Assembly (NCBI GenBank): GCA_963824385.1
Contig: CAWGPD010000002.1
Span: 160,001 to 224,000 of the forward strand
DNA: 64,000 nucleotides
Origin: an uncultured Nitrososphaerota archaeon
GTDB taxonomy: Archaea > Thermoproteota > Nitrososphaeria > Nitrososphaerales > Nitrosopumilaceae
Direction of reading: 5' to 3'
Each line of letters starts with the position of its first letter. Within the stretch, counting starts at the first letter, position 1. The notes below the pieces were generated by a model. The model made no database searches and had not been told where the DNA came from. It saw nothing but the letters and a program-made list of their open reading frames with translations. Shown here piece by piece: positions 1-6,800 of this stretch. The position numbers and the translations under genes are program-made.

Positions 1-827
1 TCGGCTATCTCACCTGCCACTCTTAACAGGTCTATGGCTCTTCTTGCATCACCATGTTCCTGCCCAGACATGGCCGAACAGAGGTTAACTGCTGCCTGCT
101 CTACAGAATTAGGTATAAAGCCAGCCTTGATGCGCTCTTCTAGAATTTCTTTGATCTGACCAACTGTATAATTGGTAAAGACTACCTCTTCCTCACTTAG
201 GCTGCTCAAAACTCTAGGATCTAGTCGTTCCTTAAATGTAAGATCATTAGAGATTCCTATTAGTGTCAATGTGCCTTTTTTTAGCCTCTCATTAGCCCTT
301 GTTAACGAATAGAATACATCTTTGCCTGATTTAGATACAAGTTCTACAAGATAATCTATCTCATCTACTACAAATACTGTATTCAGACCATCTTTTTCTA
401 TTGCTGAAATAATACGGTTGAATACTTCACTAATTGAAAGCCCTGTGGAAGGTAACTCTTTTTGAGATGTAAGACCCAACTGTCTTCCAAGTTTTACTAG
501 TAATCCATAAAGTGTAGTCTCTTCTTTTGCATTTGCATAAAGTAGGTGAATTGGAAAAGAGTTATCCTTTACTCGTTCTTGTATTTTACCCAGGACTTTT
601 TTTACTACTAGGGTTTTACCTGTCCCTGGTTTTCCATAAACTAGCAAGTTTGATGGACGTGATTTTTTTAATAGAGGTAATAGTGATTGGGTGACCTTTT
701 TTTGTTCTTCTTCTCGATGTAATATAATATCAGGAATAAATGAATAATGTAGGACTTCACGATTTTTGAATAATGACTTGCCACTTTCAGCATCATCTAA
801 TAATTTATCAATCGGATCTTTTGTCAA
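1..827 (-). CDS. cdc6: Orc1/Cdc6 replication initiator (5' part; runs off the window start)
   Basis: Manual translation from TTG at 827: MTKDPIDKLLDDAESGKSLFKNREVLHYSFIP..ILHREEEQ..., Walker A (VYGKPGTGKT), Walker B (VFVVDEIDYL), HGDARRAIDLLRVAGEIA; not in the ORF track because it is truncated. Confidence 0.95.
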   Translation of the reverse strand, partial: MTKDPIDKLLDDAESGKSLFKNREVLHYSFIPDIILHREEEQKKVTQSLLPLLKKSRPSNLLVYGKPGTGKTLVVKKVLGKIQERVKDNSFPIHLLYANAKEETTLYGLLVKLGRQLGLTSQKELPSTGLSISEVFNRIISAIEKDGLNTVFVVDEIDYLVELVSKSGKDVFYSLTRANERLKKGTLTLIGISNDLTFKERLDPRVLSSLSEEEVVFTNYTVGQIKEILEERIKAGFIPNSVEQAAVNLCSAMSGQEHGDARRAIDLLRVAGEIA

Positions 828-830
828 TGA

Positions 831-1146
831 CCCACACACCATTGTTTCTTCTCTGTATACATAATGATTCTACCTATTAATCAAATTAGAATTGAATAAC
901 TAAACCAAATTTAGTATATCATTAATTATTTTTATTATTATTTTCATTAAAAAATTTTTTAAATAAAGTTCAGAGTGGAAGTATAGGTGTGTGGGTAATC
1001 CTAAGATGATGTTAACAACCAGTGAACATTCTGTTAATTTTTTACTTGAAAAGGCCAAAATGACCCCTTTATTTCCAGTCCAGGCGTGAAGATGGCCCTT
1101 AACATTGTTAACATCCAAAAGGCAACCCCCTTGTTTCCACTCTAGG
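831..1146. other. Replication origin oriC with four ORB elements and AT-rich unwinding region
   Basis: ORB-like boxes: 831-860 (rc ..CAGAGAAGAAACAATGGTGTGTGGG), 968-995 (GTTCAGAGTGGAAGTATAGGTGTGTGGG), ~1062-1085 (rc CTGGACTGGAAATAAAGGGG), ~1124-1146 (rc CTAGAGTGGAAACAAGGGGG); directly upstream of cdc6; AT-rich tracts at 875-967 and 996-1061. Confidence 0.85.
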
Positions 1147-1303: not shown

Positions 1304-1699
1304 ATGGCTCGAAAAAGAATAAGAATAGACTTGGAAGATTCGGACGGTGCCAAGTACAACTTTAGCTTAGAAGGTAATGTTACACGTGAGAAGATGCTAA
1401 AGATATTTGAATTAATGAATTTGATAAATATAGAAGAGCCAGAAACGGCTGCTCAGTTAGATTCCATAGGAGCCAAGATATGGCATATTGTAGACAAGAA
1501 TTTCCCAATAGGCAAGTTCACATCATCTATGATCTTGGAAAAATATGAGGATGAATACACAGAACCAATCAAACTAAGTGTAATCTCCACATATCTCTCT
1601 AGATTTGCCGTAAAGGGTAAGGTAGTAAGGGAGAGACAGGGAAAAGAATGGGCCTACCAGATACTAAAGATAGCCCAGAGGGAAAAGAGTACGACTTAG
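1304..1699 (+). CDS. Conserved origin-linked protein with C-terminal winged helix
   Basis: 131 aa; FTSSMILEKY..LSVISTYLSRF..KGKVVRERQGKEWAY fits wHTH pattern. Confidence 0.75.
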   Translation: MARKRIRIDLEDSDGAKYNFSLEGNVTREKMLKIFELMNLINIEEPETAAQLDSIGAKIWHIVDKNFPIGKFTSSMILEKYEDEYTEPIKLSVISTYLSRFAVKGKVVRERQGKEWAYQILKIAQREKSTT

Positions 1700-1848
1700 G
1701 AGATTACTACCTTTTTGACCACTAGGTGGTCGCCATCGATAGTTATTTTGACATAATCTCCCTTTTGGAGTTCCAGAAACTTTCTAAAGTCCTTTGGGAT
1801 GGAAATCGTTCCTGCAGTAGTAATTTTGATTAATTGCTCATTAGACAT
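1696..1848 (-). CDS. AbrB/MazE/SpoVT-family DNA-binding protein (50 aa, missed by ORF track)
   Basis: MSNEQLIKITTAGTISIPKDFRKFLELQKGDYVKITIDGDHLVVKKVVIS*; typical G.I.IPK..R..L....GD.V motif. Confidence 0.9.
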   Translation of the reverse strand: MSNEQLIKITTAGTISIPKDFRKFLELQKGDYVKITIDGDHLVVKKVVIS

Positions 1849-2023
1849 GTTATTACATTATAAGAACAATAATTTAAGAATTTACTATTAATTATAATTA
1901 TTAAATTATAATGATTTTCTATAACTTTGACAAAAAATCAAGGGTCTGATCACCAAATCAACCAAAAATTACTTGGGATGAAAATCTAATTTCCTGATCT
2001 GCTAACTATTGATATCCTAAAAA

Positions 2024-2581
2024 TTATTGAGCCGAGACCATCTTTACGACCCCTATCCTTGTAAGGCCTTTCTCAGTTATTTTATAAGTAAAGGGTTTTG
2101 TTGACATGTCTCTTTCAACCAAACCGTCCTCAAATAACTTCTTTAACATACGTGATGTGTGTTCTCTAGTCCTTCCTATTGTGACCTGGATGTCACGTGA
2201 TGTCATTGGTTTTTCTGTGATTAATCGTAGGACGTGTTCAGTAGCATTACCATACTGCATATTCTGTATTCTTTCCTTTGGTTTCTCTTCTTTGACCACT
2301 ATAGGATCTTGTTGTATTTTTTGCTCCTTTTGCTTTGGAATTTGTGCCTGAGGATTTTCCTGTGGCTCTGGTGTCATTTCTAATGAATCTAAACGAATTT
2401 TCATATCTATTAGTAAATTTTCATAATATTGTAGACGCTCTGTTAGAATTTTTGCATTTTCTGACTCTGGCATTAATCGAGGCTTTACCTTGTTGTATAT
2501 TGTAACTGCCACAAGTCCACCAATAAAAGAAGCAAATACGCCTAAAATCACTCCTACATCTGGGATATCTACTAACATCAC
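2024..2581 (-). CDS. Membrane-anchored winged-helix DNA-binding protein
   Basis: N-terminal TM helix (VGVILGVFASFIGGLVAVTIY), coiled coil, Q/P/E-rich linker, C-terminal wHTH (PMTSRDIQVTIGRTREHTSRMLKKLFEDGLVER...YKITEKG). Confidence 0.8.
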   Translation of the reverse strand: MMLVDIPDVGVILGVFASFIGGLVAVTIYNKVKPRLMPESENAKILTERLQYYENLLIDMKIRLDSLEMTPEPQENPQAQIPKQKEQKIQQDPIVVKEEKPKERIQNMQYGNATEHVLRLITEKPMTSRDIQVTIGRTREHTSRMLKKLFEDGLVERDMSTKPFTYKITEKGLTRIGVVKMVSAQ

Positions 2582-2660
2582 GATGTAACGTCAGATGATG
2601 TGATTTATCATATTTGAGTAAAATTATTTTACATCTTACATATCAATATCAAACATATTT

Positions 2661-2835
2661 TATCACAACATATCACAACCGCTTTATGGATTATTCCTAT
2701 TTTTGAACCTAAATTACAACTTGCATGTTCGATTTAGTAGACTCTTGTATCACAACCATGACTTCTTCCTCACGTTCAGGAAAAACATCACTACTTTTTA
2801 TCACAGAGATTTGCTCAGAGAGGCGATTTATCACA
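2661..2835 (+). repeat. Array of five TATCACA direct repeats
   Basis: Copies at 2661, 2671, 2748 (all TATCACAAC), 2799, 2829. Confidence 0.7.
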
Positions 2836-3107
2836 TCCATATCATCAGAACTAAGCACGCCTAGACCTCTAAGAAGTATCCATGAATAGCATAGAGAAGT
2901 TAACTTGTCCCTAGATTGGCTTACTTGTCGATAAAATGCCCCTTTACTGATAGTAAACTGCGAGTCTGCAAGGTTCTTACGTTTTAAAATAATTTCAATT
3001 TGTCTCTCAGTAAATAGTGATTTTTTTATAATTTGCCTAATAATATTACTAAAATTATCATCAGAGGGTTTGCTCATAGTTATACAAATCTGTATAACTT
3101 TATTCAA
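2709..3107 (-). CDS. Conserved hypothetical protein, probable HTH (start more likely near 3077, MSKPS)
   Basis: FTERQIEII...ISKGAFYRQVSQSRDKL resembles sigma70-r4/Tfx-type HTH. Confidence 0.6.
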   Translation of the reverse strand: MNKVIQICITMSKPSDDNFSNIIRQIIKKSLFTERQIEIILKRKNLADSQFTISKGAFYRQVSQSRDKLTSLCYSWILLRGLGVLSSDDMDVINRLSEQISVIKSSDVFPEREEEVMVVIQESTKSNMQVVI

Positions 3108-3137: not shown

Positions 3138-3893
3138 TTGCATATGCAAAAGACAGAAGAATATCTTCATGCTACTAGAAAGAAAAAGGGAACACTACTC
3201 TTTGTATTGATTGATTCTGAAAACTCTACAGGACATTCAGCTTCTACTCTAGCAATGGAGGCTGAAAAGAATGGCGCATCAGCAGTTCTAGTTGGTGGTT
3301 CATCAGCTACTGATCAACTCACCATGACTGAGACAGTAGCTAGTATCAAAAAAGCAGTCAAAATTCCTGTAATTCTCTTTCCTGGAAATGTTACAGGTGT
3401 AGTTCCTGGTGCAGATGCAATACTTTTTAACTCGCTTTTAAACTCGGATAATCCATACTTTATCTCACAGGCACAAGCCTTGGGGGCACCAAGTGTTCTA
3501 AAATTTGGCCTTGAGGCACTTCCTACAGCCTATATCATTATTGGTGAAGGAACCACAGTTTGGCATGTAGGTTCAGTAAGAACAATTCCATTTGACAAGC
3601 CAAGTTTAGCAGTCATGTATGCTCTCTCTGCTCAATTCATGGGAATGCGATTTGTATATCTTGAAGCAGGCTCTGGAGCCAAATCTAATGTAAAACCTGA
3701 GATGGTTGCAGCTGTAAGGAAGCTTTTCAAAGGATTTCTAATTGTAGGAGGAGGCATTCGTAGCCCAGAAACTGCTGAAGAGATTGCCAAGGCAGGTGCA
3801 GATGCTATAGTAATTGGTACTTTACTTGAGAAGGAGGGAAGTTTTAAGACCATTTCCGATATCGTAAAAGCCATCCAATCTGTAAGGAAATAA
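3138..3893 (+). CDS. Geranylgeranylglyceryl phosphate synthase
   Basis: VLVGGSS, PVILFPGN, ADAILF.SLLNS.NP, YLEAGSGA, VGGGIRS motifs. Confidence 0.95.
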   Translation: MHMQKTEEYLHATRKKKGTLLFVLIDSENSTGHSASTLAMEAEKNGASAVLVGGSSATDQLTMTETVASIKKAVKIPVILFPGNVTGVVPGADAILFNSLLNSDNPYFISQAQALGAPSVLKFGLEALPTAYIIIGEGTTVWHVGSVRTIPFDKPSLAVMYALSAQFMGMRFVYLEAGSGAKSNVKPEMVAAVRKLFKGFLIVGGGIRSPETAEEIAKAGADAIVIGTLLEKEGSFKTISDIVKAIQSVRK

Positions 3894-3894
3894 C

Positions 3895-6800
3895 ATGTCA
3901 GAGAACCTAGCATTGAGACTCAAAGAGGTCCCAATGCCTCGAGACTATTTTGATTATTATACAAAAATATCTGAAGAAGTTTTTACTATCTTTGGACAAG
4001 CCGCTTCTGCCAAGGCAACACTTGCAGATTCTTCTGGTATGGTAGAACCAAAGATTGCTTTTGATCTTGCAGACCGTGTATCCAAAATGCACGACATTGA
4101 TGTAACTGATAATCTACGGGCCCTTATTCAAAATACTCCAAAGGAATTAGCTGCTCTAAAACTTGCAGAGGATATTGCACAGGGCAAATATTCTGGACCA
4201 GATACAGATCTCCAGACAAAACTTGATCTTGCCGTACGTGTGGCTCTTGCTATCGTTACCGAAGGTGTTACCATTGCTCCTCTTCAGGGAATAAGCGAGG
4301 TTAAGATCAAGAAAAATGCAGACGGTTCTGAATACCTCTCTGTATCATTTGCAGGTCCTATCAGGTCAGCAGGAGGTACAGAGGCAGCAGCTACAATGTT
4401 AATTGCAGATCATGTACGAAAGATAGCTGGACTTGGAAAATACAAGGCAAACTCATTTGATGATGAGACCGGACGATTTGTAGAGGAATTAAGGGTATAC
4501 GAAAGAGAAGTTGGAAGTTTTCAATTTCATGTTCCTGATCAAGATGTAGTAAGTGTTATCTCAAATCTTCCAGTTGAACTTGATGGCGTAGATACTGACC
4601 TTGTAGAAATTGTAAGTCATAGAAATATGGTAAGAATAGGTACCAATAGGGTAAGAGGCGGAGCCCTTCGTGTACTAAATGATGGTCTGATTGGAAGATC
4701 TCGTAAACTACTCAAACTCATAGAATTGTACAAACTTGATGGTTGGGACTGGCTCAAAGACCTGAAAGGGGCAATCCAGACAGGTGATGCAGATGCAGCA
4801 GCTCATCGTATGAGAGAAGTGATTACAGGAAGATCCGTTCTTTCCATGCCTAAGAAGCTTGGGGGATTTAGGTTAAGATATGGCCGTTCATGCAATACTG
4901 GATTTGCCTCAATTGGCATCCATCCCGTAGTTGCAGAGATACTAGATCATGCCATAACTGTTGGAACCCAGATTAAACTTGATGTTCCTGGAAAAGCCTC
5001 TACTGTAGCCTTTGTAGATTCTATTGATACACCAATTGTGAGGCTAACTAACGGTAATGTTGTAAAAATTAAAGACACTGCTCACGGAATTCATCTCAAA
5101 CCACAGATTGCAAAAATTTTGCATCTTGGTGACATTTTGATTAGCTATGGCGATTTTCTAGAAAATAATGCCGAGCTTGTACCAACTGGATATGTGGAAG
5201 AATTTTGGGCCCAAGAACTACTAGACAAAGTAACCAAATACGAACCAAATGATACTGAACTTCTAAGCTATGTAAACAAGATACCAGATCTGGAAGAAGC
5301 ATTTAGGATATCATTAAATTTTGGTATTGGCCTTCATCCACAATATCTCTACTATTGGGATCAAATCACAATTGATGAATTTGAAAAAATTCTAAAACCA
5401 ATTAAATTTGAATCTGACCTTATCATTTATCCAATTGATGCCAAAGATATTCTAGAAAAACTTGGTGTTCCACATGAAGTTGCTGGCGACACTCTACTTT
5501 TAAAAAACATAGAAGCCAAGATATTTTTCTATTTGTTATTTAGAAAGCCAATTCAACTTGAGAAGGATCTTACCGTTCCACAAATCATAACTCAATCATC
5601 TGGAATACGAATTCCAAATAAATTTTCAACATCTATTGGAGTAAGAGTTGGAAGGCCTGAGAAAGCTGCACTAAGAAAGATGAAACCTCCTGTTCATACT
5701 CTATTTCCAGTTGGAAACAAGGGAGGGGCATCACGCGATTTGCTAAAGGCTGCAAAACAGCCAGACTTTTACTGTAACATATACAATAGATTTTGCAAAA
5801 ATTGTAATGTTCCTACTATTAGCATAGCATGTCCCAAATGTAAAACAAAAACAAGCACAATTTTCATATGTAAAAAATGTAGAGATGAACTTAATACCAA
5901 TTATTGTGCAAAATGTAAATCACGAGCATATGGTCATTCATACCGTTCATTTCCTCTCAAAGATCTCTTGATTGCTGCACAAGAAAGAACTGGATTTAGA
6001 GCCCAAGAGCCATTCAAAGGCGTAAAGGAGCTCATAAACCAAGACAGGGTACCTGAACCACTTGAAAAGGGTCTGATAAGGCAAAGCCTTGGGCTTAATG
6101 TCTTCAAAGATGGAACAATTAGATTTGATACAACAAACGCTCCTCTATCACACTTCAAACCTTCTTGGATTGGAACCACTCCGCAAAGACTAGTAGAATT
6201 AGGATATACACATGATACAAACGGAAAACCACTTGAAAGCTCTGATCAACTTGTTGAACTTAGGGTACAAGATGTTGTAATTCCAAAAGAATGTGGTGAT
6301 AGTCTTGTTTTTGTCTGTCAGTATATTGATAGAGAACTTTCAAAGCTTTTTGGACGTCTACCATTTTACAATGTCAAAAGTACTGATGATCTAGTAGGAC
6401 ATCTCATAATCGGTCTTGCACCACATACATCAGTTGGTATAGTGGGTAGAATTATTGGATATACCAATACACAAGTATGTCTTGGAACTGCGGTATGGCA
6501 TTCTGCAAAAAGACGTGATGCAGATGGTGATGCAGATTCTATCATGTTACTAATGGATAGTCTACTTAATTTCTCAAGATTGTTCTTGTCTGATAGAATA
6601 GGTGGACTGATGGATGCACCATTGCTTGTTCAACCTATTGTAATTCCTCAAGAAGTACAAAGACAGGCTCATAACTTTGAGGTAGTAAAAGCATATCCAC
6701 TTTCATTCTTTGAAGCTACTCTTAGAAGAGATAAAGCAAGTGAGATCAAAGACGTCGAGATACTAAAATCAAGATTAGAGACAGAAAGACAATTTCTTGG

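Follow-up and report, generated by a model that had tools for sequence, protein, structure and literature searches.

What do the four small genes between a predicted replication origin and the genes for geranylgeranylglyceryl phosphate synthase (GGGPS) and PolD do, and do they act together? Outside the Sulfolobales, how origins are controlled beyond Orc1 and how chromosomes segregate are described as open questions (PMC7617429, PMC5120986). We analysed a stretch of 64,000 nucleotides (the window) from an uncultured Nitrosopumilaceae archaeon, whose own genome (G000) is 86% complete and whose taxonomic family is referred to as the host family. The first to fourth small ORFs are called wH1, AbrB, TMwH and H4, in order. 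The initial annotation had read them as a single four-protein module for origin tethering and segregation. Our preferred reading, to which we give a probability of about 0.5, sees the locus as an ancient cassette beside the origin, made up of three protein-motif units that can separate from one another: wH1 would pair with motif A as an origin factor, TMwH with motif B as an anchor, and H4 with motif C as an autorepressor. The features of the locus are as follows.

3-842, minus strand: orc1/cdc6, 5' part, the gene running past the window edge (TIGR02928 above cut-off)
827-855, minus strand: ORB-like box, degenerate, overlapping the cdc6 start and paired with the box at 971-999 as an inverted repeat (I3)
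860-965, no strand: AT-rich stretch (87% A+T), likely unwinding element
969-997, plus strand: ORB-like box (sequence)
1010-1289, no strand: motif A array (WGTKAA), interleaved with the ORBs and conserved phylum-wide
1063-1083, minus strand: ORB-like box with G-string (sequence)
1126-1146, minus strand: ORB box with G-string; an ORB lies at a similar distance from wH1 in many families
1304-1699, plus strand: wH1, 131 aa, beta-beta-alpha domain and winged helix, likely motif A binder (model, motif behaviour)
1696-1848, minus strand: AbrB/MazE-type protein, 50 aa (TIGR01439, PF04014)
2024-2581, minus strand: TMwH, 185 aa, with a membrane helix predicted at the N-terminus, then coiled coil, linker and winged helix; likely motif B binder (PF13463, hydropathy, sequence)
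2152-2834, no strand: motif B array (RTCAC/ATCACA; word counts)
2709-3077, minus strand: H4, about 120 aa and all-helical, with a weak HTH of the LuxR/sigma-4 type; likely autorepressor (model, motif C)
3081-3096, no strand: motif C, one copy of the palindrome TATACA-N4-TGTATA immediately ahead of the H4 start, with GGGPS about 40 bp further on
3138-3893, plus strand: GGGPS, the locus boundary (TIGR01769 above cut-off)

The PolD large subunit gene begins at 3895, after GGGPS, and the full cdc6 product, seen in locus L162, has 407 aa. The boxes beside cdc6 are presumed to be ORBs from the general ORB consensus. With G-string ORB boxes around an AT-rich stretch and next to orc1/cdc6, the region has the make-up of an ORB-type archaeal oriC and is treated here as the predicted origin. 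The motif A array includes five TGTTAACA palindromes, at 1010, 1106, 1231, 1247 and 1277. The four ORFs, the origin and the two arrays lie where the initial annotation had placed them. Both arrays exceed chance (motif A, 16 versus 2.5 expected at 701-1303; motif B, 9 versus 2.0 expected at 2501-2900), and the third motif, the palindrome at 3081-3096, had been overlooked. Each gene has one copy in the window's genome.

The H4 ORF was first read as 2709-3107 on the minus strand, and its most likely true start is the ATG at 3077. Base 2741 is missing from all three independent DNA runs that cover the position; the H4 C-terminus in the window is therefore an assembly error that alters its last residues. 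Relative to short-read contigs, surplus bases are found at 971 (969-971) and at 2741. One RNA run covered the region only thinly, with no expression to be read from it. Upstream of the window, the coding sequence of the PolD small subunit is broken into two frames (L162:10168-11617), probably by a similar slip, and the SMC match in this genome contains one stop, probably of the same origin as the errors at 971 and 2741.

How widely the arrangement is kept was examined in 221 genomes drawn across the phylum, 32 of which belong to the host family. All 32 contain wH1, TMwH and H4; across the phylum the genes were found in 148, 128 (a few being weak generic matches) and 116 of the 221 genomes, respectively. 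The arrangement wH1-TMwH-H4 recurs in 14/14 loci drawn from 14 further families of this taxonomic order, with cdc6 inside the fetched stretch in 12. The linkage to the origin expected by the initial annotation holds for this trio: ORB-like boxes lie within 6 kb of wH1 in 36/40, of TMwH in 31/35 and of H4 in 26/31 families examined. Of the two genes, wH1 and cdc6, it is wH1 that stays closer to the ORBs. ORBs adjoin wH1 in G122, G047 and G220, where the orthologous cdc6 is 91, 190 and 230 kb off; in G122 this applies to all three ORB matches. Eight families (56 genomes) gave no match to wH1, TMwH or H4, except for one weak TMwH row.

The AbrB gene matches TIGR01439 (38.9 bits, cut-off 28.3) and PF04014 (35.1 bits, cut-off 24.7). 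It is present in 17 of 18 host-family loci and in none from any other family examined. Among the phylum genomes, wH1, TMwH and H4 have been lost or relocated separately. Judged by these comparisons of sequences, the conserved unit is the three genes, and AbrB appears as a family-specific passenger. The single four-protein module does not survive the restriction of AbrB to the host family and the separate losses and moves of the three core genes. Named relatives of wH1 are from Nitrosopumilaceae and kin, which identifies the host as an ammonia-oxidising archaeon. Cultured species among the wH1-family matches are Nitrosopumilus maritimus, Nitrosarchaeum koreense and Thermofilum pendens. A scan of genome contigs with one distant wH1 returned only itself and two weak bacterial rows, and all named matches of the sequence searches fall within the phylum. 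For the locus proteins, ESM Atlas yielded archaeal clusters only and PDB sequence searches nothing useful. No literature on the trio genes was found in a search of openly accessible papers; supplementary arCOG tables may list them. The cassette is real, conserved and undescribed in the literature found.

The wH1 model comprises a beta-beta-alpha domain and a winged helix (pLDDT 75.7). Its best match is to Fur (Z 11.1), among many winged helices, and Foldseek gave no match at E 0.001. wH1 has only a generic wHTH in common with TMwH (hhalign probability 60); the wHTH domains of both resemble the common regulators Fur, BlaI, ArsR and MarR. Motif A is concentrated at the origin. The window's genome holds 39 copies of TGTTAACA, 5 of them within 270 bp at the origin, and any other 400-bp window has at most 1. 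Among non-ORB words upstream of wH1, WGTKAA ranks first within the family, the order and the phylum, as TGTTAA in ammonia oxidisers and TGTGAA elsewhere. At ORB clusters adjoining wH1, 547 copies were counted versus 170.5 expected (60 loci); z is at least 2 in 47 of these origins and below 2 in 13. Outside the host family, motif A has no fixed spacing from the ORBs.

Loci in which genes have moved or been lost allow each motif to be assigned to its likely protein. At seven origins whose wH1 gene lies on a different contig or at a distance of 20 to >500 kb, motif A is kept (52 versus 17.4, excluding L064 and L109, where a second ORB pair was picked; the cases come mostly from related families, f25, f31 and f43 clustering in the tree, plus one independent case). 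The G032 origin has 15 copies versus 2.9 expected, though two genes separate wH1 from it. Motif A is also present at origins that cdc6 has left (L053, L073, L110), and it does not follow displaced wH1 genes. At the five loci lacking wH1, which represent two families, it is not enriched (19 versus 14.3). The origins of families that lack all three genes told little: only 1 of 24 cdc6 loci had at least 2 ORB matches, and motif A occurred 3 times versus 2.2 expected. Since motif A persists at ORBs without a wH1 gene and elsewhere without cdc6, it is not tied to either promoter alone. What these loci share is the origin, which suggests that wH1 acts there in trans. Motif A is likely bound by wH1, which is likely an origin accessory factor.

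Two further observations were set aside as evidence of binding. A residue in the wH1 recognition helix varies with the motif (Thr with GTGAA in 31/39, non-Thr with GTTAA in 16/18), and the tree-corrected test failed with 5 independent pairs (median p 0.5), on a wH1 tree of 57 of 72 loci that left out 10 family loci, L100, L104 and rows missed by the helix pattern. TGTTAACA is rarer than its reversed control in 5/5 genomes, and palindrome avoidance has other causes. Other origin repeats (GTATAA, GTAGAA) occur where the recognition helix differs, in L065 and L078 (f41) and in L074 (f52).

TMwH ends in a wHTH that matches PF13463 above cut-off. Its residues 9-27 form a hydrophobic helix (Kyte-Doolittle 19-mer score of 2.3 at residue 9), and a heptad stretch at residues 41-72 is followed by a linker rich in P, Q, E, K and S. 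Only about 8 residues lie ahead of the membrane helix, so there is no outer sensor domain. The helix is present in 25 of 35 families and absent in 10. Some of the anchor-less relatives (L057, L077, L052, L096) have a short aromatic-basic N-terminal stretch, which could be a membrane-targeting motif.

The motif B array has 7 sites in the TMwH ORF, 3 intergenic ones and 4 in the 3' part of H4. Around the gene, motif B is enriched at least 1.5-fold in 26/34 families with TMwH (below 1.5-fold in the other 8) and in 0/8 without it, the families not being independent and f20 being counted in the anchored group although it has no helix. Three of the eight families without TMwH have kept H4, yet motif B is unenriched there. 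At origins no enrichment was found (105 versus 113). TMwH lies 13-33 kb from the origin in the four displaced genomes measured, and motif B travels with it. The array follows the TMwH gene and its promoter and not the origin. Its peak is at -300 to 0 of the TMwH start, like that of an ordinary operator, and in the host family a second peak lies in the wHTH-coding part. Within coding sequence of the host family, motif B exceeds the synonymous-codon expectation in TMwH (161 versus 46.8, somewhat inflated by frames that take in upstream codons) and in H4 (81 versus 27.0), with no excess in cdc6 (64 versus 55.2) or GGGPS (29 versus 31.5). The palindrome-forming Ser-Arg codon pair TCA-CGT is kept in 18/18 host-family loci, whereas TCA makes up 29% of Ser codons and CGT 10% of Arg codons.

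Counts of ATCAC[AG] in the window's genome single out one leading cluster, with 10 sites in 800 bp against a mean of 0.82 and 6 in the runner-up; with the looser RTCAC count, one unrelated window ties with the TMwH array. Along contig C2 in 20-kb bins, ATCAC[AG] has no broader rise near oriC, a comparison in which such short sites limit power. RacA with ram and Noc of Bacillus combine a DNA binder, a coiled coil and membrane contact with sites near oriC. Unlike the ram sites, motif B forms one local cluster and is not spread around oriC. From its co-occurrence with the gene, motif B is likely bound by TMwH. The array fits a centromere-like array that doubles as an operator, or an extended operator.

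The H4 model is all-helical (pLDDT 86). Its best VIA-align match is to the DNA-binding domain of EsrB (Z 6.3, rmsd 3.6, 59 residues), a weak LuxR/sigma-4-type match. Foldseek found nothing at E 0.001, the 43 members compared with Pfam shared no consistent family, and ESM Atlas gave a 0.82 lead to a Hadarchaeota cluster. Of the four DNA binders claimed initially, the wHTH, AbrB and TM-wHTH folds were supported, and the HTH-like nature of H4 weakly so at Z 6.3. Motif C stands before H4 in 59/63 loci and 31/33 families, against a background of 0.061 per 100 bp, and also precedes H4 where H4 has relocated. A perfect copy occurs in 13/17 host-family genomes. It abuts H4 in the 8 relatives with both positions known and is the sole copy in 6. 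Motif C looks like the autorepressor operator of H4, and the divergently oriented GGGPS-PolD genes may be under its influence as well. A second perfect copy in the window's genome, at C4:321652, is intergenic, just before a 110-aa hydrophobic ORF, and is not a recurring site in relatives.

As the initial annotation had stated for the window, ParA/SegA ATPases seem to be missing: no full-length ParA was found in the window's genome, at 86% completeness, or in two complete relatives, G205 and G041. PF13614 matches in these three are a P-loop piece only (profile 2-43); longer ones occur in G038 and G032. SMC was found in 5/5 genomes, by matches below the curated cut-off. Profile searches found no NTPase domain in wH1, AbrB, TMwH or H4, and none of the four matches PF02195 (ParB N-terminal domain). 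An unlinked PF02195 protein is encoded on contig C3 of the same genome. In one genus without TMwH (L066, L163-L166), H4 has a ParA gene as its immediate upstream neighbour in 5 loci, and 3 loci have a ParB gene on the other side, beyond wH1. This neighbourhood is missing in the sister genus and adjoins archaellum-like genes in some loci; we give it little weight as evidence.

A possible mechanism can be put together from these units. Soluble wH1 would bind the WGTKAA repeats between the ORB boxes and act as an accessory or control factor of the origin, perhaps influencing initiation. TMwH would dimerise through its coiled coil, sit in the membrane and coat the RTCAC sites in the promoter and ORF of its own gene; it could thereby hold origin-proximal DNA at the membrane. 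H4 would repress the H4-TMwH operon from one palindrome. Any role in segregation would rest on SMC and not on ParA. wH1 is likely an origin factor, and origin tethering by TMwH is possible.

Several known systems resemble parts of the cassette, as far as the cited accounts describe them. UBP of Sulfolobus oriC1 is a small, sequence-specific binder of a non-ORB motif, ucm, in an ORB-type origin, and its authors ask about analogous proteins in other lineages (PMC12141716). On the comparative evidence, wH1 would likewise be a small binder of a non-ORB motif within an ORB-type origin. However, UBP is a beta-rich saddle restricted to Desulfurococcales and Sulfolobales, with one ucm between the ORBs and >300 genome sites (PMC12141716), and contact with the N-terminal tier of MCM is among its features. 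The model of wH1 is a winged helix, and the motif A repeats lie on the flanks of the ORBs as the genome's one cluster of this motif. H4, being all-helical, also differs from the saddle. We infer by analogy that wH1 may work like UBP with another fold. WhiP at Sulfolobus oriC3 is a winged-helix initiator at an origin without ORBs (PMC4010727). The wH1 gene is similarly a winged-helix gene fixed beside an origin, but one at which ORBs and Orc1/Cdc6 are present. The WhiP family was not among the Pfam, NCBIfam and PDB matches of the locus proteins. N. maritimus has one mapped origin (PMC4010727).

On the described features of RicO from Staphylococcus aureus, TMwH is similar: one protein unites a DNA-binding domain, a coiled coil and a predicted membrane contact, its probable sites lie near oriC, and G000, like S. 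aureus, has SMC without full ParABS. The differences are substantial. The domain order is reversed, the RicO/RacA type having an N-terminal HTH and a C-terminal membrane or pole contact; TMwH has a predicted transmembrane helix and RicO an amphipathic one; and TMwH has one array on its own gene, whereas ricS comprises nine sites over ~700 kb around oriC (bioRxiv 10.64898/2026.03.06.710092). Tethers of the RicO/RacA type are further marked by a mislocalised origin and faulty segregation when they are lost. SegAB and the AspA-ParB-ParA system of pNOB8 use small binders with sites beside their own genes, perhaps both centromere and operator (PMC5120986). The trio is alike in its probable small site-specific binders with sites beside their own genes, and AspA, which appeared as a weak Foldseek row (E 0.012), is a wHTH too. 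It differs in having no ParA/SegA ATPase in the locus, or full-length in the genome, and no ParB domain. The haloarchaeal oapABC/arvABC genes form a conserved three-gene cluster at oriC, on the side far from orc1 (PMC7002104), as the trio does, although the proteins (a small GTPase, DUF2073 and DUF2072) are unrelated. Despite their conservation at oriC, oapABC proved to act in vesicle formation (PMC10927574). Position alone therefore proves nothing, and motif behaviour matters. On the features tested, the trio is not a member of the ParABS, SegAB, WhiP or Oap systems.

The same findings can be read more conservatively. wH1, TMwH and H4 could be ordinary transcription factors that each regulate their own gene and have stayed close to oriC because of gene dosage or the timing of the cell cycle, with the motifs as their operators; the membrane helix would then only sequester or tune TMwH, and H4 might also control GGGPS-PolD. 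Such a role would suit the single, operator-like palindrome of motif C, the motif B peak at the TMwH promoter, the resemblance of both wHTH domains to Fur, BlaI, ArsR and MarR, the 10 of 35 families that dispense with the anchor, and the oap precedent (PMC10927574). It explains less well why motif A persists at ORBs without a wH1 gene and elsewhere without cdc6, why motif B lies in coding sequence as well, and why TMwH has no outer sensor domain. In addition, there is no second comparable TGTTAACA or ATCAC[AG] cluster and mostly no second perfect motif C, so that no wider regulon is visible, although 5-6 bp sites in single promoters would escape detection. We regard this explanation as unlikely, if still a contender.

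The initial annotation's own model, one dedicated origin-tethering and segregation machine whose proteins cooperate like RacA/ram or RicO/ricS, draws on TMwH, which unites a membrane helix, a coiled coil and a wHTH, on the dense array ~1.5 kb from oriC and on the helix in 25/35 families. The lack of a full ParA in G000, G205 and G041, the limited distance between TMwH and the origin (13-33 kb) where it was measured in four displaced genomes, and ParA upstream of H4 (5 loci) with ParB opposite (3 loci) in the TMwH-less genus can be added. Yet the genes were lost and moved independently, AbrB is not conserved, SMC is present, and the sites are not spread over the origin domain as described for ricS (bioRxiv 10.64898/2026.03.06.710092). 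The ParA/ParB neighbourhood, too, is that of one genus, missing in its sister and near archaellum-like genes in some loci. A single cooperating machine is in our judgement improbable. For a further reading, chance neighbours of the origin or the remnant of a mobile element, speaks the AbrB/MazE-type gene, a type common on mobile elements. Single-copy genes in 32/32 family and 116-148/221 phylum genomes, in fixed order and with conserved motifs, speak strongly against this, and with phylum-wide synteny contradicting it we consider it scarcely credible.

A bolder version of the three-unit cassette is a tentative and rather doubtful one. TMwH, on its centromere-like array, would be the first archaeal origin-membrane tether and would work with wH1, a new winged-helix origin factor filling the role of UBP in Sulfolobus, both inherited across ammonia oxidisers, Bathyarchaeia and relatives and replacing ParABS/SegAB. 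To our knowledge, no other archaeal protein is known to hold oriC at the membrane, as TMwH would if the tether exists. The locus provides three named protein-site pairs with exact predictions, found in cultured species. They thus open origin control and origin anchoring, neither of which is understood in this lineage, to direct tests.

Other genes recur beside the trio or at the origin. A further small HTH gene of ~100-120 aa is found at the ORB cluster in f18, f23, f40, f42 and f53 (L064:8245-8550, L093:5413-5781, L095, L098, L110). These families include both that lack wH1, and the gene possibly encodes a replacement origin binder. In f40 (L064, L109) two ORB clusters lie ~2 kb apart with the small HTH gene between them. 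Several Bathyarchaeia-type families have a NurA-like and HerA-like gene pair between wH1 and TMwH (L056:6431-8966, L067, L069). Many of the deeper families (L063:7427-8062, L065:5573-6178 and others) have a gene with XRE-HTH and CBS domains next to the trio, and it often takes the place of TMwH as the convergent neighbour of wH1.
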